Source: Channa argus (taxonomy: Eukaryota). Taken from it: a DNA stretch of 64,000 nucleotides. The position numbers and the translations under genes are program-made. Under the pieces are notes generated by a model. It did no database searches and had not been told where the DNA came from. It worked only from the letters and a program-made list of their open reading frames with translations. This document shows, in pieces, positions 2,611 through 59,332 of the stretch. How positions within the stretch are numbered: position 1 is the first letter of the stretch; every line of letters begins with the position of its first letter. The stretch covers positions 5,973,544 to 6,037,543 of the forward strand of contig NC_090205.1 of assembly GCF_033026475.1 (NCBI RefSeq), in the 5' to 3' direction.

Positions 2611-5600
2611 TGCCCTTGATGCAATTCCTGACGCAAACACTACTGTGCTAAATTACTCTTAACATTATTGTTGACTCTTAGTCTGTTTATATGACTACAA
2701 AGGTCTTAGCTACTAGAGTTAAAAAAAAGTTTAACATTTTAATACATCATTTAATAATAATAATAGTGATAATAAATTGTATAAGCTGTTGCGGCATAAC
2801 CATGGCAGCAGTTTTTTTCTTGTGGAAATATGTAGGAGGGCTGTTTAAAGGAGGAACACTCTGATGAAGAGGTCGTCAATGGGTGAACATTCTTTTATAT
2901 CTTCCTAAAGCATTTGAAGAGGGAAAGATCAGCAAATGCTCAACACCACTCTGCACCATGCTGGATTTATCTCTTCTGCATCTCATCAGTCTGAGAGCTT
3001 CTGCTTTGAGAACAGGCTGATATCCTGGTTAAAAGAGCAGAACTCCTCTTTGAGCTTTCTGAAAATAACACGTTTCTAATTTGGTATTGTTCAAAACCCA
3101 TTTGCTGAGCATATAATACATTTCGGTATGATGTGTTTCTTTTGACCTCAGACGTCTTTGCTATTTCTAAGCACTGCAGTGTAGTTTGAAATCAGTGAGG
3201 GATTGCTGGCCTATTTGGCCAAGATTGACCTTGGTATTTGATATTAACACCATCATGCTGCCCATATGTGTCTAATAGGGCCCAGTCTGATGATGAATAG
3301 CACTCAGTGTTCACAGAGCTGACCTATAAGGGGTGGGACGCACAAAAAGGGCCAAAAAACAAAGGAAGCCCACTTTTCAGCTCATTTACTGTAGCTTCAG
3401 GGTGATTTACGCAGAACCTGTTCGGTGAGCTTTGTTGCGTTTGTATTTTGACTGTTTGAAATTTTGAGTGTTCCTCCCTTTGTGGTGTAAAAGCAGAGCA
3501 GATGTGTGATAGTAGAAAGGTTTTAATCTGAGGATCTTGTGATCTCAAACAAGATTTGGAATGTAACTTTGTTACGTTCGTTTTAAGCAACACTTTAAGT
3601 GCAGGAATATCACTTCGTAGGAAGCAACAGTACATTTCAGTTTTGAAAAAGCTCATTTGAGAAACACAAAATCACCCAATAACACAAAGAGCTGCACGAT
3701 AACCCAGAAAATTATGCAAAGAATTATACAAATCAAGACAAATGAACAGAGGCGCAAAAAATACCAAAAACAATGACACATTTAAAAAATAGGAGACACG
3801 AAATACATGAAGCGACCTGAGAAGTGAAACGCTCAGTTAAAAGAAAGAAATGACAGCAAAAAAAACTTACAGAAAAAGTCTAAAAAAAAAAGATGCAAAA
3901 TTAGTACAAAAAAATGAACGACAGCGTGACCAAAACCAGAGACCAGATGCCCAAAATCAAATGTAGAATCCCAAAAAGAGCCAAAATGACCAAAAAGAAA
4001 AGGGTGAGGCTTCTGTACCCAGAGGCCTATTTTTTTTTTTACAATCCATCTAACATCAAAAAGGGATTTAAATGCTTCTTCCATCACTGCTCTCAATTTG
4101 CAGCAGGGAGCAGCAGCACAGTAAAGTGCAGAATAAGAGTAAAGATGATGATGACAATGACCATTACCTGTTAGTTTCCTCTCTTGGTTTATTAGAGTAA
4201 GTCAGTGCAAACACAAAGGCAACATGTGAATCGTTGTTCACGGTTATGTATCTATAAACCATGGAACATTATACTTATGATTTTGGAGTCAGTATGATCG
4301 AGTTTCCTCTGTGTACAATAGCTCTCTGGATATTCAAACTTTCGCCCTGCCTTTCAAAGATCCACCCATCCGAAATGTGCTTTAAAGTCTTCACATCTGG
4401 AGGGGCACACTAAGGTTGAACCTCACATGTCCTCAGTTTGCTCTGTGTGAGAATTCTTTGTTTTTCTTTGGAAGGGGAAGGACAGAGCTGTGAGTATCTA
4501 CAGAGGCTTTGGTTTGAAAGAGAGGAAAAAATCAAAGTGCTCTAATGTGTTTTAAGGCGAAATCCAGGCTAAATCGATTCTGCTGAACTGAAACACTGGG
4601 GCGGTTTTTGCCAAACCACCGGGTTATTGTTTAGTGTATGTTTATACAGTTTGATCCATGAAAGAACAAAAAACAACTCAGTGCTGGGCCCTGCTTTCAT
4701 TTCAGCCCGATTTTAAGAGGATAGATGAACTAAATATCTTGTAGCGATCAATGGGTATCGATCAATTCCCTGAAATGCTTTTATTTCAGGCATAGTGTGG
4801 ACCAAATTGAAAAGCAGTGTGTTGATAATGGAGAGAAAGGGGAGAAACAGAATACGGTGCTGTGCTGTCCTCTGGACTGCTCTAAACTCTCAGTGCTGTG
4901 TTGTTTAATGAAACAGGAAACACGAGGGAACAGACTTCTAAGGTTTACTGTGGGGGTTTTTTAAAACGTACAGTTTGATTTCAAGATGCCGCCCTGTCTT
5001 ATTTTGTTGGCTGGGAAACCAACAGCCAGCTTTGTTAAGGTTGCTGAGTACAAAATCAGCGCATCAAGTGCATAACCATCGGCCCACGACATAAATATAA
5101 CAACAAGTAGGTAGAGTTATGACATTAAAAGACTGCTACATTAACAAGGAGGTATTCAGAATGGAAGGTGGAGCAATGTAAATCAATCTAACAGCTGAGA
5201 TATTAGATCAGCAGCGTAACCAGAGGATGGTGCATGGTGAGAGTAGCATGAAATTAGATTTCAGGGAGGCAGCACCAGTGAAAGTGACTGGCTTCAGTCT
5301 GGTAGGAGACAAAAATACAGGGACATCTTTCTGACGTTCTTGCTTCATGAGCTCTAAGGAAACCAAAGATTTCCAAAGTCTGAAGGTCCTACGTTCCGAG
5401 TACAGCTCCAGTGTTTGAACTGAATAGGGTTAAAAACAAAAATGAAAGGGCCAGAAAGAAAAGCCCATTTTAAATGAGGGTAAATGTAAGAAATCAGTCG
5501 GATCACTGAAATACTGTGGATGTGGATCTGAAACAGGCTTTTGTTTTGTCAGTGCATGAGGTGTTGACTTCATCTAGGTCCAACATGAGACTCAGTCATC

Positions 5601-10700: not shown

Positions 10701-12939
10701 AAGCTCAGTGACCAACAGACATTTATGAGATACATGTTTTTCAGCAAGATTATATTTACAGATGAACACCACTTTATGATTTCTGCATCTTAAATACAGT
10801 CGGCAGAAGTAAGAAGCGATTACTGGGCTATCAACTAACCACAGCACAGTCACATGACTGCAGTGTCGCCACCACTATGCTTCCAGAACTACTGGTCTGG
10901 TGGCTCAGTGCATCCAGCATTAAAATTCATGCCAAATCAAAATGCGGAACATGTTCCGCTGTGGCGACCCGTGAAGGGACAAGCCGAAAGCTACTGATCG
11001 TTGACATCAACCTTTTCTACAGAATTCTTTTTTCTTACGTTGACCCAATAAAGATAGTGATCATGACTCGTGAACTTAACAACACTGTAGATGTTTCATT
11101 AAGCTGCTTGTTCGCCACTGCTTTTCAAGACACAAGAGGGTGCAAGAGGGTTTTTGCTTGATGGCTTTGATGTCAGAAAATGTCTTCACCTTGTGTTAAC
11201 TATAGACCTTATTTCAAACCCATTTTAAACACCATGTATGACGCTAACTACTTTCCAGGTTTTAGGACATCATAGGGTATTCTAAGAATCAGGCAGGTAT
11301 AATTGACATTTCCTGATGGGGTCTGAGTTTCACACAGAAGTATAGAATAGAAGCATAGAAGTCCTTTTGGAGAGAAACTTCGAAAAAGTTTACGTACTGT
11401 AGCTTTAATTTCCACACTGTATTAGTGCTACTTTTCTGTATTTAGCCATAAAAATGATTTAAACAATGAAATACTTAATTGTCGAAAGGCAATTAAACCC
11501 AACAACAAAGACTAATTTGGCCTGGTCCTTAAAAACCAAAGCAGCATCTCAGTTCTTTTGTACTAAATTTCTTTTAATCGTTTTTCTTTTTGGGGAAATT
11601 AAAAAGGTGAAAAGCCCTGGACGTGCACTGGTATCTTGATGCACATTCATTCATTTGTTGCTGTACCAATGTGTGTGTGTGTGTGTGTGTGTTATATTTG
11701 GGCAGCCGCTGTCACCCACCACTGTGCAGGCCACACCAGGCGTCATAGATTTCCAGTCGTGTGACATTAAACTCAGACTGCTGCTACAGTATTTCCACTC
11801 TGCCCGTCTGTTTTTTCATTCGAGCTTAACTAAGCCACAAGAGGAGCGAGATGAGAGAGGAAAGAGACGGAAGGTGTGGAGGCGACGCTGAGAAAGAGAG
11901 ATGGAGAGAATCCTCGTCTAGCTGATGCGACATGCTGAGTAAATAACATCAGTGGAAGAGAGATGGAGAGGTTGCAGTGAAAACAGAATGTATAAAAAGA
12001 TGAGGCAGTGAGGGATGCATGGGGTGCAAGAAAGGATGGATGAGGGGGGAGGATCTTTGAGGTGCTTTGCTTTTTTTTTTTTTTTTACATGAATAGAATC
12101 AATCAGGAGGACAAATTTGTGGAGTGTGAGGTGATGACTAGTATTCAGGGATATTATGACCGTTTGTGGCTCCCAAAAGCAGGAAGGAGAGCTGTGCACC
12201 ATCCTCACATCAGACATCTATTGTCTCCGAGGGTGAGTGTTTTGGCGCCGACCAGAGGAGCCAGAGCTCCCCCCAGTGGCAGGTTTGGGCACCGCAGTAC
12301 CTTGTCCCGTGCAGTCACTTGTGTAATTGGCAATAGTTTGCTAGAAAACATAGTGGAGCAGAAATAATTTCTCCTTTGGGTTGATTCGTGTTTTTTGTAC
12401 AGCACCTGTACTTATACACACTTATATTCAAAGTATTCAAACATGCTATGGATATATGATAACATTTACATATTTGATGAAAATTAAACAACATAAAGAA
12501 CAGAGTACAATACTTTAGGACAATGATAATCATTCACTGATAGTCATCAGAGGACATAACCCTCCATAACCTCCACTGGTTCTCAGGTTCATTTTATATT
12601 AGACACCTCTACATCATATTTATCTTCATTTTTGCATTTCCACTACACCTTCTTTTAGCAAACTACATTATGGTGGACAGACGTTTAATGCCAGCATTAC
12701 ACATTCATTTTCCGTTATCTTTTTTGTTGTTGTTGTTGTTGTGGTATTCTGTTCTGGTGAGTTGTACATTCGTTGGTGGGTTTGCAGTATAACCATTAGA
12801 TCCTTTAGCGTATGTATGGTTTCGTTTTCTTCATTTTGTCTTTGTTTAACTGTGTGCTCAACTAAACCAAACCCCATTTACAACAAAGGTTTAAGTCAGT
12901 CAAACCACATTTTCTCAATTAGAAGGCAAATGTTTTAAC

Positions 12940-13700
12940 TAAACATTTTCACTGTGAGTCATAGGATCCTTTAGTTTTACTTTTAGTAATTCAGATGAAA
13001 GATCTCTGTTTCTTGCTGATGGTGGCAGTGCCCTGTTCATAAGTAGCCTGATATTGTAGCCTTTTCTATGTCCATAAACACATTCAGACTGGATAGGCAA
13101 ACTGGCAGAATCTCTCATGTAGCCTTGCAAGAACAGGTTGGCCCACTGTTCCACCTCTGATTTGCATCTCTGCTTTTTGCTGATGACGTGCTTCAATTGG
13201 CTCCATCAGACTGTGACCTTCAATATGCACTAAGCAAAACTCTAAATTTAACTGCCTACATTCCACTATGCATCTATGGTCCTGAGGTAGTGACTGAAAG
13301 AATGTGAATGTAAATGTAAGCTGCCAAAACGAGTTCCCTCCGTGGGGCGACTGGGCCGATGGAGTGTGGGGGTTGGACATCCTGAGAACGCGATGATTAA
13401 AGCTGCTCCTCCTTTGAATCAAAAGGAGAAGGTTGTGGTGGTTCAGGCATTTTTGGACTGCATCCTGGGTGTTTTCCACAAGAGGTTTCCAGGCATGTCC
13501 AACTGGTAGGAGACCCCAAGCAGACCCAAAACATGCTGGAGAGATTATATCTCATCTGTCCTGGGATTACCTTGGAACACTGCCATAGGAGCTGGAAAAC
13601 ATTGCTGGGTAGAGAGAAGTCTGTAAATTGTGCTTAATCTCCTTAACCTGCTGCCACGGCGACCCAGCTGAATAAGCAGAGGATAATTGATGGATGGAGG
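12940..13700 (+). mobile_element. Decayed LINE (non-LTR retrotransposon, L2/Rex-like) fragment: reverse-transcriptase C-terminus plus 3' tail.
   Basis: Plus-strand translation gives the hallmark RT motif LLFADDVLQLAPSDCDLQYAL (the FADD box) around 13170-13230. The downstream 3' UTR-like tail is ...ctgctgccacggcgacccagctgaataagcagaggataattgatggatgg, typical of teleost LINE ends. The reading frame is broken by stops. Confidence 0.6.
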
Positions 13701-44202: not shown

Positions 44203-44272
44203 ATGGAGGAAATTTATGTGAATGTCGAACCTCAAAAACATCTGGCCCCGAGACCTTCAACAGATGAGACGG
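44203..44272 (+). CDS. C-type lectin copy A, exon 1 (cytoplasmic tail): MEEIYVNVEPQKHLAPRPSTDET(G).
   Basis: The ATG is at 44203 and the donor is acgg|gtgagt. It is paralogous to 54514-54584 in copy B. It is followed (after the transposon-bearing intron) by a signal-anchor exon. The domain order is that of type II CLEC4-like receptors. Confidence 0.55.
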
Positions 44273-44277
44273 GTGAG

Positions 44278-46831
44278 TCAATATCACCAGAGAGTGCCTT
44301 TCAACCCTCACAATACTCAAATATTTACATTTTAATTTACCATTCACTTTATGTCATGTCATAAATAGTAGACATTCAAGTATATAAGAAATATATTATC
44401 TGAGCTCCCACACTCCCCCATTTTTCAGAGCATATAAATATAAATACATAAAAGATTTTACATAAAACGTGTTTTTAAAGAAACATAATTTGCACATGTA
44501 TTTTATTCTTATTTGGAGAATAAAATTATATTTGGACACAGTTTTTTGTTTGCATGTTATTGCCCCCACACCTAGCTATTGAACAAACTGGATTATATAG
44601 GTATGATTGAATTATTATTTTAAATATTATTTTAAAATATCAAGATGACAGGGTGGATAAGCACACAACGGGGTGGACACATAAAGCACAACACAAAAAG
44701 CATGAGAAAATATGTCAATGGAACAATTATTCAACTTAAAAAAAGAAATGCAAAAATTAAATTCTCAATCACATTCATATAACCAAACATTTAGAACGGC
44801 CTGCTGTGGGGTCATGTCGTCGACTTGGAGAAATGGAGAAGAAGGCCAGAGGTGACTGGTCTTCAGCAGTGTAAAGTGCCCCTGTATGGAGAGTTGTCTG
44901 TTGGTGCGATCCTCCAACGTGGACTGCTTGAATTTCTTGGCTGTATTTGCACAAGTAATTTTCACTATAATCAATATGCAGCATGCACTCATCTGATTTT
45001 AGGGTCTCCCTGATTTTTCTGTAGGCTGTGTATTGCCATCTATATATTACGACTGTGGAGGACATTTGCCATGAGTTGTGTATTCTCATGTGTTTTGCAC
45101 AATCACGTGTTGCGGTCAGCCTCTGTGGGTGTAACAACTTATAATGGCCTAAGCCGGCAAAACATGCTGTATGACAGTTGGCCCTGCTGCTCAGATGTGT
45201 CTGTGAGTCATCTTTTTGCATATTTTTATTTTGTCGTGTGATTATTTGTTAGCAGCCTGGTTTCATACGGCTGACATCATCACGGAGAGAAAAAGACCTC
45301 ACTTCCCTCTTAATCTCCAGAGCTGCACCACTTTCTTTTTTCTTCACGGTTGCACAAAGATCCACACTGAGGGTTACATTTCTTTTTTTGGAGTAGCCAA
45401 ACGCCACTTTGTGTGTACTTCTCAAGTTTGTACTTTTTAAAATACTCCCAGAAGTCACCCTGGCAATCAGTTGTCTTTCTCTCTCAGTTTTTGCGTTTCT
45501 GTATTTTTGCCTGATGTTCTCAACCAGGGTGGTGTGAAATAGCAGGGCTCTCGTAATAGATGCCCTAACTTTTTGGGCTCTTACCAATTCCCTGACTTTT
45601 GAGTGAGGAGACACCGAAGGTTCTTGTCGCTTCATCCTCTGGTACCTCTTTTTGTATTTTTCCACTATTGTCCTGGCTTTAGCTCTGGCAGCTGTCTTTG
45701 CCTCCTTCCATTTTTTCCTTTGTGAACATTTTCCTCTCTGTGTGAGGTCATTAATAGCTTTCTTCTTGCTTGTATCTCTATCTTTTCTCCATCTCTCCCT
45801 TTCTTTCTTAAAGTATGCCTCTCTTTGTTCAGGGTTTGCATCCCGGCGTTTTGTGTATTGCCGTGCACTTTCTGCCGCACTCAGAGGCATGTCCTGAGAA
45901 CAGCAATGACTTTATGTTTTTTTAAATTACAAAACGTTATCTACAGCAGATGTTTTCTATAAAATGTAATATAAAATTTTTTATAAATTACAATATTAAC
46001 TTCAAATGAATGCTATGTCCACCCTGTCATATGTATGTCCACCCTATCGAGTCGAAGGGACCGACAGGGTGGACATTTTGGAACAACGATAGGGTGGACA
46101 TTTTGAGCTTCAATTAGCATATTATCTTACAACAAACTGTGACTATTTAAATAGTTAGTCTGGTTGTTGAAGAGAATTTGGTATATTTAAACTTACATAT
46201 TAAACTTAAATATTGTATTTTACTCACTTCTAGTGTATTTTATGCCGACAGGGTGGACATGTTAAGCTTTGGCAAAACAAGTAAGCGAACTCATATGAAT
46301 AAAATTTGTCATTTGGAAAGTCAGCAGCTCATTCACCTCAGCAGTAGAAATCCTGCCACTAAAGAGATAAAAAATCTGTTGTCCTGATGTCACTAATGGA
46401 GACAGACTTTTCTTAAAGGGGCAGATTCCGCAATACGACAGGGTGGACAACCATTCAAGGGACATGGACAACGCTATTTTTTTATTAAATAAAAATATTG
46501 TTTTTATTACAAAATGATCAATACACTAAATTTGAGTAATATCTTATTTAACAAAATATTAATAGGAAAACATTTTATTTTATTTTTATGATTTTATTCT
46601 CATTCAAATTTAATGAGCGGTGCCTGGGACATAGCAAAATAACACACATCCTTTTATACAAAACAAAAAAATATCTTGAAAATGTATCTAAAGAGCCAAG
46701 TAATGCTTCTGTTATGAATAAGAAACTTACCCTAATACAACACACCCTGTCATAGTCATTTGTATGTTAAGTTATCATGGCAAATGACTTATTTATGTTC
46801 AGGACACCAAAAGGCACAGTGATATTGATTT
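44278..46831 (-). mobile_element. ~2.56-kb DNA-transposon insertion with 10-bp terminal inverted repeats TCAATATCAC, in intron 1 of lectin copy A. It carries a frameshifted transposase-like gene on the minus strand and internal GGGTGGACA repeats.
   Basis: The left end is gag|TCAATATCACcag and the right end is cacaGTGATATTGA|tttg. Both flanks (gatgagacggg ... tttgtttgtttg) are contiguous in the paralogous copy B at ~54580-54600, which therefore acts as an empty site. Minus-strand ORFs 45249..45890 (213 aa, K/R-rich) and 44775..45221 (148 aa, ...HIDYSENYLCKYSQEIQAVHVGGSHQQTTLHTGALY...) are in different frames. There are six or more copies of gtccaccctgtc / gacagggtggac in both orientations at 46017-46450, and one at 44651. 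Confidence 0.65.
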
Positions 46832-46934
46832 GTTTGTTTGGTCAAACAGATGCTCACTGACTGTGCTTTGCCTGAATTTATATCATCAGCTTTCACTGTG
46901 GTATAACTGACTGGATTCATTGGTCTTTGCACAG

Positions 46935-47033
46935 GTTCAAGGAGCTCACAGAGGAGATTTTATGGAGCTCTTCTCTTTTTGGGGCTGTTGAGTGGTTTTC
47001 TTCTCGCTTTTCTCATCAGCCTCGGTGTCCACT
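46935..47033 (+). CDS. C-type lectin copy A, transmembrane (signal-anchor) exon: (G)SRSSQRRFYGALLFLGLLSGFLLAFLISLGVH.
   Basis: Acceptor tttgcacag|gtt, donor ccact|gtgagt. Only one frame gives a ~23-residue hydrophobic helix after basic RR residues. It is conserved in copy B (54692-54790). Confidence 0.6.
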
Positions 47034-47282
47034 GTGAGTTTAGATTTCAGTAGTATTATTAAGTATTATTTTTGCTCTGAAACATTTTTATTTAGGTATT
47101 TTTTGTCTAAGGTAAAAGTGCAGTCGTAGCTTTAGTTTTACTAAAGTTTGGGCGTTTAGACATTTCACATTTTGCATATAGTTGGAACAGATGTTGGAAA
47201 CCTAGAGCAAAACTACAACATATTTTCAATGTATTATGCTTTAGCTATTAGGACTCTAGATGTTTACCTTTTTTCGTTTTAG

Positions 47283-47488
47283 AAACATGTATCCTAAATG
47301 TATTTCAGACCGTGATTCATCACATCGTTTAGCTGCAGAGCTCTCTGCTGTTAAAGCCAATCTGACTGAGCGTTTTCAGGTCAGTGATGGTCAACTTTCC
47401 TTGATGACTGCAGAGAGAGACCAGCTGAATGCCAGCCTCATTGCAATGACTGGAGAGAGGAACAGGCTTCAGAGTTTGTCCAAACAGA
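47283..47488 (+). CDS. C-type lectin copy A, neck (coiled-coil stalk) exon: NMYPKCISDRDSSHRLAAELSAVKANLTERFQVSDGQLSLMTAERDQLNASLIAMTGERNRLQSLSKQ.
   Basis: It lies in ORF 47260..47616. The acceptor is cgttttag|a and the donor is acaga|gtgagtg. The heptad-like pattern matches CD209/CD23-type necks. The phase between the TM exon and this exon does not close directly (see findings). Confidence 0.65.
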
Positions 47489-47735
47489 GTGAGTGCTTTC
47501 CAGTACGTTGGTCTTGTTCCAATAACTTAATTTTGTTTGATTGTGTATTGATTTTTGTATCGTCTCCAATGAGAAACTGCAGTCCTAACAGAGTTTCCCT
47601 TCAGTTTTGGGATTGAGAAAGTTCACATTCTGCATGTAGCTGGAATAGATTTTGGAACCCAAATGAGAACTAGAACATATTTTCAATGCATTATACTTTA
47701 GCTATTATTACTATGAATGTTTACTTTGACTGCAG

Positions 47736-47780
47736 AGAGAGACCAGCTGAATGCCAGGCTTACGAGTTTGTCCAATCAAA
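47736..47780 (+). CDS. C-type lectin copy A, extra 45-nt in-frame neck mini-exon: (K)RDQLNARLTSLSNQ. It arose from a partial duplication of the neck exon and is absent from copy B.
   Basis: It has the acceptor tgactgcag|agagag and the donor tcaaa|gtgagtg, the same donor context as the parent exon. Its 45-nt length preserves phase 1, so inclusion or skipping both keep the frame. The upstream intron segment (ttcaatgcattatactttagctattattactatgaatgtttac) is duplicated with it. Confidence 0.4.
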
Positions 47781-48284
47781 GTGAGTGCCTTTAGTAAAAT
47801 CCTGCAAAATCCTATCATTGATGGACACATGTTCCTTCAATGATAGTTTATCATCCAGCCAGATAGCCAAATACAAGTATGATGATACTTTTTCAATAGT
47901 ATCTCCTCCTTTACTTTGTATTCCTGGATAGTTGATGTCAGCCAAGTGAGCTCTGGTGAAGCTCATATGTCTGGTCTTTTTAACATTAAGGACCAACTTT
48001 ACTTTAGTCAGAGATGACTGGAGCTGTCCAAACCAGACTCATTAACAGCCTAGAGCAGAGAGGGAGTGATTGAGTAAATGACTGTGTGTCATCTGCATAA
48101 AGGCGGATTTTTGCCTTTATAGTAATTTTGACATGTTCTAGATCAGAGCTAATTGGATTCATTGGGCATTGCATAACAAGGGCACTTACATCATGCACGG
48201 AAAATGAACTGGAAGCATATTGTAGCCTCTCAAATAGAAGCTCTGGCCGCTTCTTGAAGTTCTCTCCTTGGAAATATCTTACAG

Positions 48285-48427
48285 AGAAAACATGTCCTAC
48301 AGGATGGAGGAAGTTTAGTTGTTCCTGTTACCTCCTCTCCAGTCTGTCTGGTTCCTGGGAAAGAGGCAGAGAGGACTGCAGAGTCAAAGGAGCAGATCTG
48401 CTGGTTATAGAGAGTGATGAGGAGCAG
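48285..48427 (+). CDS. C-type lectin copy A, carbohydrate-recognition domain (CRD) exon 1: (K)KTCPTGWRKFSCSCYLLSSLSGSWERGREDCRVKGADLLVIESDEEQ.
   Basis: It is in frame with ORF 48128..48451. The acceptor is tcttacag|ag and the donor is gagcag|gtt. It has the canonical CTLD start C-P-x-x-W-x-x-F...CY-x-S and the conserved WxxAxxxC...A.L motif. The part of the ORF upstream of the acceptor is intronic. Confidence 0.75.
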
Positions 48428-48545
48428 GTTTTTGTTCAAGATTTTTATTAGACTTCTCAGATCGATCCAGTTGATTTTTGGGCTCATATTTCTTATTGTG
48501 ATGTGTCAGACTAAAGTATGATGCAAGTTTCTCTATGTTGAACAG

Positions 48546-48649
48546 ACCTTTGTTTTAGGATTAACTCAGCAACCAGCTTGGATTGGTTTGAATGATAAAG
48601 AAGTGGAGGGGACCTGGAAATGGGTAGATGGTACTTCACTGATTAAGAC
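48546..48649 (+). CDS. C-type lectin copy A, CRD exon 2: TFVLGLTQQPAWIGLNDKEVEGTWKWVDGTSLIK.
   Basis: Acceptor gttgaacag|acc, donor aagac|gtaaga. It carries the WIGL-D...EG-W-W-DG motif that defines the CTLD. Confidence 0.75.
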
Positions 48650-48821
48650 GTAAGACTTCACTTTGATTGAAAACTGTCATTACTGTTAAAATATAGTAAT
48701 AATAGAATTCATTTGTTTTTAATTGAATTTAAATGATCTGATACGGAGGGTAGTTAGACTAAACCATACAGTCACCTTTTTTTGTTGGTACATTATATCT
48801 TTTTGCTCACCGCCCTGCTAG

Positions 48822-48972
48822 GTACTGGAAGAAAGATCAGCCTGATAATGGTGGTGGAAGCCCGCTGTGGGGCGAAGAGGACTGTGCACATATCAGAAAT
48901 GAAGAAAACAACCTCTGGAATGATCTGTCATGTACAGCTTCTCTGCGTTGGATCTGTGAAAAACTACTATAA
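48822..48972 (+). CDS. C-type lectin copy A, CRD exon 3 with stop codon: (T)YWKKDQPDNGGGSPLWGEEDCAHIRNEENNLWNDLSCTASLRWICEKLL*.
   Basis: The acceptor is ctgctag|g. It has QPD (Gal/GalNAc-type) rather than EPN, and WND and the last disulfide Cys. It matches the ASGPR/MGL pattern QPDN...EDCAHF...WNDDVC...WVCE. The stop codon TAA is at 48970-48972. Confidence 0.8.
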
Positions 48973-54513: not shown

Positions 54514-54584
54514 GATGGCGGAAATTTGTATGAATGTCGAACCTCAAAACCATTTGGAACAGAGACCTTCAACAGATGAGACGG
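54514..54584 (+). CDS. C-type lectin copy B, exon 1 (cytoplasmic tail): MAEICMNVEPQNHLEQRPSTDET(G). The tyrosine of copy A is replaced by Cys.
   Basis: It is paralogous to 44203-44272 and has the donor acgg|gtttgt. The intron to the TM exon is only ~105 bp because copy B lacks the transposon. Confidence 0.45.
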
Positions 54585-54691
54585 GTTTGTTTGTTTGCTC
54601 AGACAGATGCTCACTGACTGTGCTTTGCCTGAATTTATATCATCAGCTTTCGTTGTGGTATAACTGACTGGATTCATTGGTATTTGCACAG

Positions 54692-54790
54692 GTTCAAGGA
54701 GCTCACAGAGGAGATTTTATGGAGCTCTTCTCTTTTGGGCGCTGTTGAGTCCTTTTCTTGTGGCTTTTCTCATCCGCCTCAGTGTGCACT
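54692..54790 (+). CDS. C-type lectin copy B, TM exon: (G)SRSSQRRFYGALLFWALLSPFLVAFLIRLSVH.
   Basis: It has the same acceptor and donor as copy A and the same frame. Confidence 0.55.
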
Positions 54791-55189
54791 GTGAGTCTAC
54801 ATTTTAGAAGTATAATTATTTTAGTATTATTTTTGCTCTGAAGCATTGTTTTAGGTATATTTTTACTCTTTAATCTAATACCTATTTTCCCAAATGTATG
54901 TTGCTATAAATATACATTTTCCCACCTAGGATAATGGTTGAGGATCAGGAGCATTAACATTTTAATTTTATTATTATTTAGACTGTTTGAGCTCAGGTAC
55001 AGGTTGTGAGGTCAACAACATAAAACCGCAGCCGTAGCAGAGTTTCAATAAACTTTTGGGGTTGAGAAAATTCACATTTTGCATATAGTTGGAACAGATG
55101 TTGGAACCTTAGAGCAAAACTAGAACATATTTTCAATGCAATATACTTTAGCTATTATTACTATGAATGTGTACCTTTTTCTGTTTTAG

Positions 55190-55395
55190 AAACATGTATC
55201 CTAAATGTATTTCCAACCGTGATTCATCACATCGTTTAGCTGCAGAGCTCTCTGCTGTTAAAGCCAAACTGACTGAACGTTTGCAGGCCAGTGATGGTCA
55301 ACTTTCCTTGATGAGTGCAGAGAGAGACCAGCTGAATGCCAGGCTCATCGCAATGACTGAAGAGCGGAACAGGCTTCAGACTTTGTCCAATCAAA
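55190..55395 (+). CDS. C-type lectin copy B, neck exon: NMYPKCISNRDSSHRLAAELSAVKAKLTERLQASDGQLSLMSAERDQLNARLIAMTEERNRLQTLSNQ.
   Basis: It is in frame with ORF 55167..55409. Acceptor ctgttttag|a, donor tcaaa|gtgagtg. Confidence 0.65.
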
Positions 55396-56162
55396 GTGAG
55401 TGTTTTTAGTAAAATCCTAACAGGGAGTTTCTTCAGCAGATGAGACACATGTTCTGTCAATGATAGTTTGTCATCCAGCCAAATAGCTAAACACTTGTAT
55501 GATGATGATGATACTTTTCCAACAGTATCTCCTCCTTTAGTTTGTATTCCTGAATGGTTGATGTCAGCCAAGTGAGCTCTAATGAAGGTCATATGTTTGG
55601 TCTTTTTAACAACCAGACCAAGTTTAATTCTGTCAGTGATGACTGAAGCTCATTAATAGCCTAGAGCAGAGAGGGAGTGATTGAGTAAATGACCTTGTGT
55701 CATCTGCATAAAGACGGATTTTTGCACTGTTCAGGTTTCTCCCAGTGTCATTTAAAAAAAATAAGATAGCAACCAAATAGAAACTTGAGGGATCCCATTA
55801 CAAATTGTCATAAAACCTGACTAATGTCCATCTACAACAACACATCCTACCTGTAAGATAATTTCTAAACCACTGAACGGGCAGATTCGACATGCCAATA
55901 TGTTTGAGTCTGATACTGACCTGTCAAATAGCCTTTAGTCATGAAATAATCCAGGTGTTACACAACCTTTTCCAATATAGTTAAGGCTGATTGATAATAG
56001 TCATTTTGTCATGTTGTAGATCAGAGCTAATTGGATTCATTGGGCATTGCATAACAAGTACACTTACATCATGCACAGAAAATGAACTGGAAACATATTA
56101 TAACCTCTGAAATAGAAGATCTGGCCTCTTCTTGAAGTTCTCTCCTTGGACATATCTTGCAG

Positions 56163-56305
56163 AGAAAACATGTCCTACAGGATGGAGGAAGTTTAGTTGT
56201 TCCTGTTACCTCCTCTCCAGTCTGTCTGGTTCCTGGGAAAGAGGCAGAGAGGACTGCAGAGTCAAAGGAGCAGATCTGGTGGTTATAGAGAGTGATGAAG
56301 AGCAG
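56163..56305 (+). CDS. C-type lectin copy B, CRD exon 1: (K)KTCPTGWRKFSCSCYLLSSLSGSWERGREDCRVKGADLVVIESDEEQ.
   Basis: It is in frame with ORF 56132..56392. Acceptor tcttgcag|ag, donor gagcag|gtaaga. It is 98% identical to copy A. Confidence 0.75.
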
Positions 56306-56415
56306 GTAAGATTTTTATTAGACTTTTGCTTTACCCAAGTTAAAACAATATCCTCAGATAGATCCAGTCGCTCATATTTCTATGCAGTATGATGAAGGTT
56401 TCTCTATGTTGAACA

Positions 56416-56520
56416 GACCTTTGTTTTAGGATTAACTCAGCAACCAGCTTGGATTGGTTTGAATGATAAAGAAGTGGAGGGGACCTGGAAATGGGTAGAT
56501 GGTACTTCACTGATTAAGAC
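56416..56520 (+). CDS. C-type lectin copy B, CRD exon 2: TFVLGLTQQPAWIGLNDKEVEGTWKWVDGTSLIK.
   Basis: It is identical to copy A exon 2, with the same splice sites. Confidence 0.75.
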
Positions 56521-56692
56521 GTAAGACTTCACTTTGATTGAAAACTGTCATTACTGTTAAAATATAGTAATAATAGAATTCATTTGTTTTTAATTGAATT
56601 TAAATGATCTGATACGGAGGGTAGTTAGACTAAACCATACAGTCACCTTTTTTTGTTGGTACATTATATCTTTTTGCTCACCGCCCTGCTAG

Positions 56693-56843
56693 GTACTGGA
56701 AGAAAGATCAGCCTGATAATGGTGGTGGAAGCTCACGGTGGGGTGAAGAGGACTGTGCACATATCAGAAATGAAGAAAACACCCGTTGGAATGATCTGTC
56801 ATGTACAGCTTCTCTGCGTTGGATCTGTGAAACATTAGCATAA
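56693..56843 (+). CDS. C-type lectin copy B, CRD exon 3 with stop codon: (T)YWKKDQPDNGGGSSRWGEEDCAHIRNEENTRWNDLSCTASLRWICETLA*.
   Basis: QPD...WND is retained. The C-terminal tail differs (ETLA* versus EKLL* in copy A). The stop codon TAA is at ~56841-56843. Confidence 0.75.

Positions 56844-59220: not shown

Positions 59221-59332
<112 letters not shown>

Follow-up and report, generated by a model that had tools for sequence, protein, structure and literature searches.

A snakehead C-type lectin gene carries, in the intron downstream of its neck exon, a 45-nt segment with splice-like borders and an open reading frame. The question is whether this segment is spliced into the receptor as a small additional exon or is what remains of an exon that was lost. 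The window analysed here, a stretch of 64,000 nt from Channa argus within which all positions are numbered, holds a cluster of CD209/CLEC10A-like C-type lectin genes that bear introns, at a GC content of ~36-43%. A tblastn search of the window located copy A and copy B (54515-56837) on the plus strand and two decayed copies on the minus strand. The segment lies in copy A (44203-48972, plus strand), whose six-exon manual model translates into a type II C-type lectin of 248 aa. The exons of this model are listed below.

44203..44272, plus strand: exon 1, start codon and cytoplasmic tail, ending in phase 1 (manual model; spliced translation equal to protein P0001)
46935..47033, plus strand: exon 2, transmembrane anchor (translation agrees with P0001)
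47309..47488, plus strand: neck exon in use, 180 nt, phase 1/1, donor AGA/gtgagtg (in P0001 and in isoform P0005)
48285..48427, plus strand: exon 4, the first of three exons for the C-type lectin domain; its acceptor pairs with donor 47488 (Pfam Lectin_C match)
48546..48649, plus strand: exon 5, second lectin domain exon (manual model)
48822..48972, plus strand: exon 6, third lectin domain exon, with QPD, WND and the stop codon (manual model)

The product of copy A (P0001; KAF3694509.1 and XP_067371554.1, Channa argus, 248 aa) is annotated as CD209 antigen-like protein D or CLEC10A-like. As read from the translation, it consists of an N-terminal cytoplasmic tail, a single hydrophobic anchor (FYGALLFLGLLSGFLLAFLISLGV), a heptad-rich neck with Leu or Met spaced every seven residues, and a lectin domain. 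This C-terminal C-type lectin domain matches Pfam PF00059 Lectin_C with 76 bits (cut-off 22.6; residues 155-261). The translation contains the predicted Ca-dependent sugar-binding motifs QPD (KKDQPDNGG) and WND (NLWNDLSC), and QPD suggests a galactose-type specificity, which we presume from the motif. By its predicted domain, topology and motifs, copy A is a type II transmembrane C-type lectin receptor of the CD209/CLEC10A/ASGR-like kind. RefSeq also models an isoform X2 of copy A (P0005, XP_067371555.1, 196 aa), which joins donor 47488 to ~48559 at an acceptor internal to exon 5 (ttttag/GATTAAC). This isoform skips the first lectin domain exon, and its product has an incomplete sugar-binding domain. 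Intron 1 of copy A (44273-46934) is 2662 nt long, and its last 106 nt alone match the whole intron 1 of copy B (54586-54691, 106 nt), so that copy A holds an insertion of ~2.55 kb; the first introns of C. striata lectin genes are short too.

Copies A and B differ in several places. At ~55214-55240, the cag that serves copy A as neck-exon acceptor is replaced by cca in copy B; the neck of the copy B protein (P0003, 240 aa) begins 24 nt later, at tttag/CTGCAG, and is 8 aa shorter. Intron 3 of copy B includes ~270 nt (55728-55994) that are missing from copy A, and the rest of the two introns is 82-92% identical. In intron 5, the tract 48661-48810 of copy A is identical to 56532-56681 of copy B at 150 of 150 positions, and the lectin domain regions (48267-48960 and 56145-56831) are 95-100% identical, against 81-83% in intron 2. 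These alignments indicate recent gene conversion between the two copies in their 3' halves. The minus-strand lectin copy that lies between them (53205-50512) has an in-frame stop in its last lectin domain exon (YWT, stop, DQPDN) and a (GT)n run in place of the 5' part of its neck exon, and is probably a pseudogene. The second partial copy on the minus strand (60176-58252) contains a (TG)53 microsatellite at 59224-59329.

A second, damaged neck-exon unit in intron 3

Self-BLAST and local alignments revealed that intron 3 of copy A holds a second, damaged copy of a 459-bp unit, in which the 180-nt neck exon is flanked by the end of intron 2 and the beginning of intron 3. The two units, the segment in question and the corresponding region of copy B are as follows.

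47115..47573, plus strand: unit 1, the neck exon preceded by 194 nt of intron 2 tail and followed by 85 nt of intron 3 (d1) (local alignments; 47115 corresponds to 47574)
47574..~47797, plus strand: unit 2, decayed, with 154 nt of intron 2 tail, two exon remnants and the donor region (alignments; identical in a second assembly)
47736..47780, plus strand: 45-nt candidate mini-exon or pseudoexon, peptide KRDQLNARLTSLSNQ (absent from every annotated product)
55023..55418, plus strand: copy B comparator, with one neck exon (55240-55395), the end of intron 2 before it and the donor region after it (protein P0003, XP_067371556.1)

Unit 2 is recognizable by three blocks of homology. The first (47574-47727) matches the intron 2 tail at 47115-47270 with an identity of 77-80% and contains a 116-nt core with E=4e-24; the second (47727-47760) matches exon positions 47405-47438 at 33 of 34 nt (E=1e-10); and the third (47755-47791) matches the exon end and donor at 47463-47499 with 86% identity (E=9e-7). 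The blocks are collinear, on the same strand and in the same gene, with a period of 459 bp, as in a tandem exon duplication, and they bear out the preliminary description in deriving the segment from a duplicated neck exon together with the intron ahead of it. That description had placed a repeat of ~100 bp at 47680-47790 and assumed one internal deletion. The homology is real, but it begins 106 nt earlier, at 47574, and extends to ~47797, and two deletions are found instead of one. The larger one, of ~135 nt, corresponds to 47271-47404 of unit 1 and took the original acceptor together with most of the 105 nt of parent exon upstream of the new acceptor. The smaller one, of exactly 30 nt, corresponds to 47439-47468 and lies between CAG(C/G)CT microhomologies. 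An assembly artefact was ruled out as the source of the repeat, since unit 2 is identical in a second assembly (GCA_004786185.1, locus L002), which is colinear with the window and differs by 16 SNPs in 24.8 kb, none of them within 47574-47800. Copy B, as the same description had said, has no counterpart of the mini-exon, and no second unit follows its neck exon.

Splice signals and use of the 45-nt segment

The segment at 47736-47780 reads ctgcag/AGAG...TCAAA/gtgagtg, contains no stop and has a phase 1 intron on either side. Its acceptor was recruited from the former codons ACT GCA G, and its donor AAA/gtgagtg is letter for letter the working donor of copy B. Transcript models that include or skip it translate into 263 and 248 aa without stops, the inserted peptide being KRDQLNARLTSLSNQ. 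The acceptor and donor boundaries, the preserved phase and the two in-frame forms were thus correctly described at the outset; the insert, which had been called a heptad, is two heptads and one residue long (15 aa). In a heuristic scoring of splice-site quality, the pyrimidine tract of the acceptor has 10 of 16 matching positions, against 9-12 of 16 in the real acceptors of the gene, and no AG occurs within 30 nt upstream. A scan for yUnAy branch points was non-discriminating, as the real exons of the gene likewise have no well-placed matches. The predicted splice signals of the segment therefore look as good as those that the gene uses. The same intron contains 14 in-phase open AG...GT segments of 30-120 nt, the candidate included, so an open frame with AG/GT flanks alone weighs little. 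Judging from these comparisons, the distinctive feature of the segment is its homology to the neck exon and not its frame.

The segment differs from the parent exon at four positions (8.9%) and from copy B at three (6.7%). This is about half the divergence of the flanking intron (21% against the parent side, 12% against copy B), although 45 nt give no statistical power. Half the intron divergence is what would be expected if the relic lineage alone were free to change, and there is therefore no indication of purifying selection; the values fit a relic that may be diverging at about the neutral rate. A supposed derived change common to the relic and copy B ('NAR') was dropped from the comparison, as it is made by the junction of the 30-nt deletion (CAG/GCT).

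Two independent annotations, GenBank KAF3694509.1 and RefSeq XP_067371554.1, agree residue for residue with the form that skips the segment, and RefSeq isoform X2 is also without it. The existence of isoform X2 implies that other junctions leaving donor 47488 were visible to the RefSeq pipeline, but none of these leads into 47736. The protein cluster of P0001 has one member, and the exact 263-aa inclusion form was not found in a collection of 15 billion proteins. This collection contained no transcript-derived contigs for the skip form or the inclusion form, and the absence of inclusion thus holds at the level of annotation, not of reads. When the 66-aa peptide spanning neck, mini-exon and CRD was searched against a protein database of 5.8 billion clusters, two unrelated candidates were returned and P0001 itself was missed; with a query this short the search has little sensitivity, and its outcome does not count as a negative. 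Of the features expected of a cassette exon, the segment has a usable AG/GT pair and, with weak weight, a length that is a multiple of three with an open host frame, and neither the GenBank and RefSeq products nor the protein collection gave transcript or protein evidence of inclusion. The view that an extra exon is in use here, which the preliminary description had taken, thus runs against the skipping in all annotated products and the missing 263-aa form. We consider it probable that the segment is a pseudoexon, the unused remnant of a second neck exon that decayed by deletions. That transcripts pass over it is most likely, to judge from the annotation.

A real cassette exon, regulated or confined to a minor share of the transcripts, would lengthen the neck by 15 residues, in a receptor of 263 aa, and would be predicted to alter the length and register of the coiled coil and the spacing of the sugar-binding domains. 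We regard this explanation as unlikely. The competent-looking splice signals, the donor shared with a functional exon of copy B and the open frame in phase 1/1 all speak for it, but 13 other segments of the same intron are also open and in phase. The GA-rich 5' end and the heptad-like L-x3-L-x2-L peptide, akin to the neck repeats of the family, also speak for it; however, 15 aa do not make a whole number of heptads, three of the four changes from the parent exon alter the amino acid, and the divergence fits neutrality. Other teleosts make alternative use of duplicated neck exons, but the segment appears in no annotated product, although RefSeq models two isoforms of copy A. It seems quite improbable to us that the relic has been reborn as an exon from a decayed duplicate, that is, as a low-abundance or infection-induced cassette exon which adds the 15-residue KRDQLNARLTSLSNQ to the neck. 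If it were spliced in, the likeness of its peptide to the 14-aa units of other necks could hint at the origin of that short repeat unit, through the same 10-codon deletion in a neck.

Should inclusion be true, copy A would offer a natural experiment with isoforms of a pathogen-recognition lectin whose stalks differ by 15 residues, and the effects of neck length and heptad register on oligomerisation and ligand reach could be tested in fish. If the segment is a relic only, it matters little, as another case of exon duplication and decay in a fast-evolving immune lectin cluster under gene conversion. It then serves as a caution that in-frame segments with splice-site flanks are not evidence of exons.

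Origin and age of the two-unit layout

In a 123-124-nt core of the duplicated intron tail, units 1 and 2 are 78.9% identical (~21% divergence). The same core of copy B is closer to either of them (86.3% identity with unit 1 and 87.8% with unit 2; divergence 12-14%), and each unit is 75-78% identical to C. striata (divergence 22-25%). These identities suggest that the duplication long predates the present similarity of copies A and B and is of about the same age as the divergence of C. argus and C. striata. One C. striata gene has two complete neck exons that are both translated (P0004, Q5P01_013936, 304 aa; locus L001). They are full and in phase, with unit 1 at ~10785-10965 and unit 2 at 11056-11226, ~90 nt apart. 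The intron after unit 1 of copy A aligns with the intron after unit 1 of this gene over 55 columns, and with the intron after its own unit 2 over 17 nt only. The intron after unit 2 of copy A aligns with those after the neck exon of copy B (score 99) and after unit 2 of the C. striata gene (score 65). Another C. striata gene (P0006, L003), a neighbour of PARP4 in a position syntenic with copy A, contains a single neck exon, and the relic is absent from it. As to which of the two is the ortholog of copy A, the synteny with PARP4 favours P0006, and the two-unit architecture and the content of intron 3 favour P0004.

The most economical explanation of these alignments would be that the ancestral gene had a pair of neck exons, of which the second remained intact in one C. 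striata gene and was reduced by deletions in C. argus copy A. Contrary to the initial idea of a partial duplication, the whole 459-bp unit was probably doubled in an old event, and ~135 and 30 nt were lost from it afterwards. The inference that the duplication is common to C. striata is weakened by gene conversion, as the exon sequences in the cluster are mosaic.

It has also to be considered whether the second unit is a young partial duplication specific to copy A, formed together with its deletions in a single step and unconnected with the C. striata gene that has two neck exons. The duplication junctions would agree with this, since unit 2 of C. argus begins 194 nt upstream of the acceptor position, after 85 nt of intron, and unit 2 of C. 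striata begins ~35 nt upstream of the acceptor, after ~55 nt of intron; so would the lone neck exon of the syntenic C. striata gene and the lack of a second unit in copy B. A recent origin is nevertheless improbable, because the divergence between units 1 and 2 exceeds that of either from copy B and nearly equals that from C. striata. Moreover, a simple local tandem duplication predicts matching downstream introns, whereas the two introns of copy A are homologous for 17 nt only and each has its match at the equivalent unit of the C. striata gene with two neck exons. A possibility that we hold more seriously, while still doubting it, is that the layout arose not by tandem duplication in place but as a hybrid junction left by unequal crossing-over of two diverged neighbouring paralogues. 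In that case the 5' half would derive from a lineage with a 'd1-type' intron, and unit 2 onward from a lineage resembling copy B. The downstream introns of the two units are of two types, each common to different paralogues; unit 2 and everything 3' of it are closer to copy B than to unit 1 (87.8% against 78.9%), with a shared donor AATCAAA/gtgagtg; and the A/B-identical tract in intron 5 testifies to active exchange in the cluster. Gene conversion after an ordinary tandem duplication could, however, yield the same pattern, and the two histories are inseparable with three or four short segments. Unequal crossing-over between paralogues would be an equally good source of the two-unit layout, and it bears on the origin story alone, leaving the status of the relic unchanged.

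We infer the following order of events for an ancestral two-neck-exon gene that decayed in C. argus. The 459-bp unit would have come to stand twice in tandem, through tandem duplication or through unequal crossing-over between neighbouring paralogues, at about the time of the split between C. argus and C. striata. In the lineage of C. argus copy A, a deletion of ~135 nt may then have removed the acceptor of unit 2, together with the greater part of the exon ahead of an internal CAG, and a slippage deletion of 30 nt may have removed ten further codons. The internal CAG (codons ACT GCA G/AG) would thereby have come to abut the intron and to look like an acceptor, the original donor surviving, and the remaining 45 nt would have kept phase 1/1 by chance. 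The spliceosome would normally join donor 47488 to acceptor 48285 and give the 248-aa receptor, while the relic presumably drifts neutrally in intron 3.

Neck length in related lectins and comparison with known systems

The preliminary description had stated that neck length varies in this family, and a comparison across paralogues and species supports this and uncovered duplications of the whole neck exon. Fish lectin necks vary in two modes, namely by whole neck-exon duplication and by expansion of a 42-nt (14-aa) repeat within the neck exon. Translated proteins with two neck exons occur in C. striata, Etheostoma, Sebastes, Melanotaenia and Sparus, and cassette-like use of the duplicated exons is annotated in Etheostoma (isoforms of 279 and 241 aa) and Sparus (390 and 365 aa). 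In the Channa paralogues P0115, P0124, P0126 and P0129, the neck consists of a 14-aa (42-nt) unit, ERDQLNxRLSSxxx, repeated 5-11 times in one exon, and the copy number of this unit varies by paralogue and species. In C. striata, such in-exon 42-nt arrays are present at 12583-13173 of locus L004 and at 4655-5035 of locus L005. Locus L004 also appears to have two near-identical gene starts (1501 and 11739), which suggests that the locus was recently duplicated in place or that two gene models were merged. The 14-aa unit is similar to the relic peptide KRDQLNARLTSLSNQ. We rejected the idea that the 14-aa repeats are separate 42-nt mini-exons, as the repeats of L004 and L005 lie inside one continuous neck exon; they thus give no support to a mini-exon mechanism. 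A literature search on snakehead and teleost CD209 neck exons found nothing relevant.

Among known systems, the stalk of CD23 (FCER2) is similar to the candidate in that a type II C-type lectin stalk is built of small duplicated in-phase exons. In CD23, each 21-aa repeat has its own 63-nt exon, and these exons are constitutive and conserved, whereas the 45-nt unit of copy A is unannotated and its 15 aa break the heptad count. Human CD209 (DC-SIGN) and CLEC4M (DC-SIGNR) share with the Channa genes a variable neck length in a type II C-type lectin. Their repeats are 69-bp (23-aa) units within one exon, not separate exons, and the repeat number affects tetramer stability and reach. The relic is not an in-exon neck VNTR of the DC-SIGN/DC-SIGNR type, since 247 nt of intron lie between it and the parent exon; the Channa analogue of the human repeats is the 42-nt in-exon arrays of P0115, P0124, P0126 and P0129. 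Genetic variants of DC-SIGNR are the subject of PMC2752805.

The whole neck-exon duplications of teleosts (C. striata P0004, Etheostoma cragini X2/X3, Sebastes, Melanotaenia and Sparus) concern the same family and the same exon in the same phase 1/1. There the duplicate lengthens the coiled-coil neck, and the flanks of the C. striata gene match copy A unit by unit. The second exon of these genes is complete (~50-57 aa) and translated in annotated proteins, whereas copy A keeps 45 nt that no annotation includes. Copies produced by tandem exon duplication have been searched for systematically in human, fly and worm genes, and unannotated human exon copies have been tested for expression with GTEx RNA-seq (Ivanov & Pervouchine 2022, PMC9013439). 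Like the vertebrate remnants of tandem exon duplication and intronic pseudoexons, the copy A relic is an adjacent copy of exon and intron on the same strand, with splice-like boundaries, outside the annotated mRNA. It differs from them in being internally deleted and in having an acceptor that is new, made from coding sequence and not inherited. The relic belongs to the well-known class of tandem exon duplications with decay.
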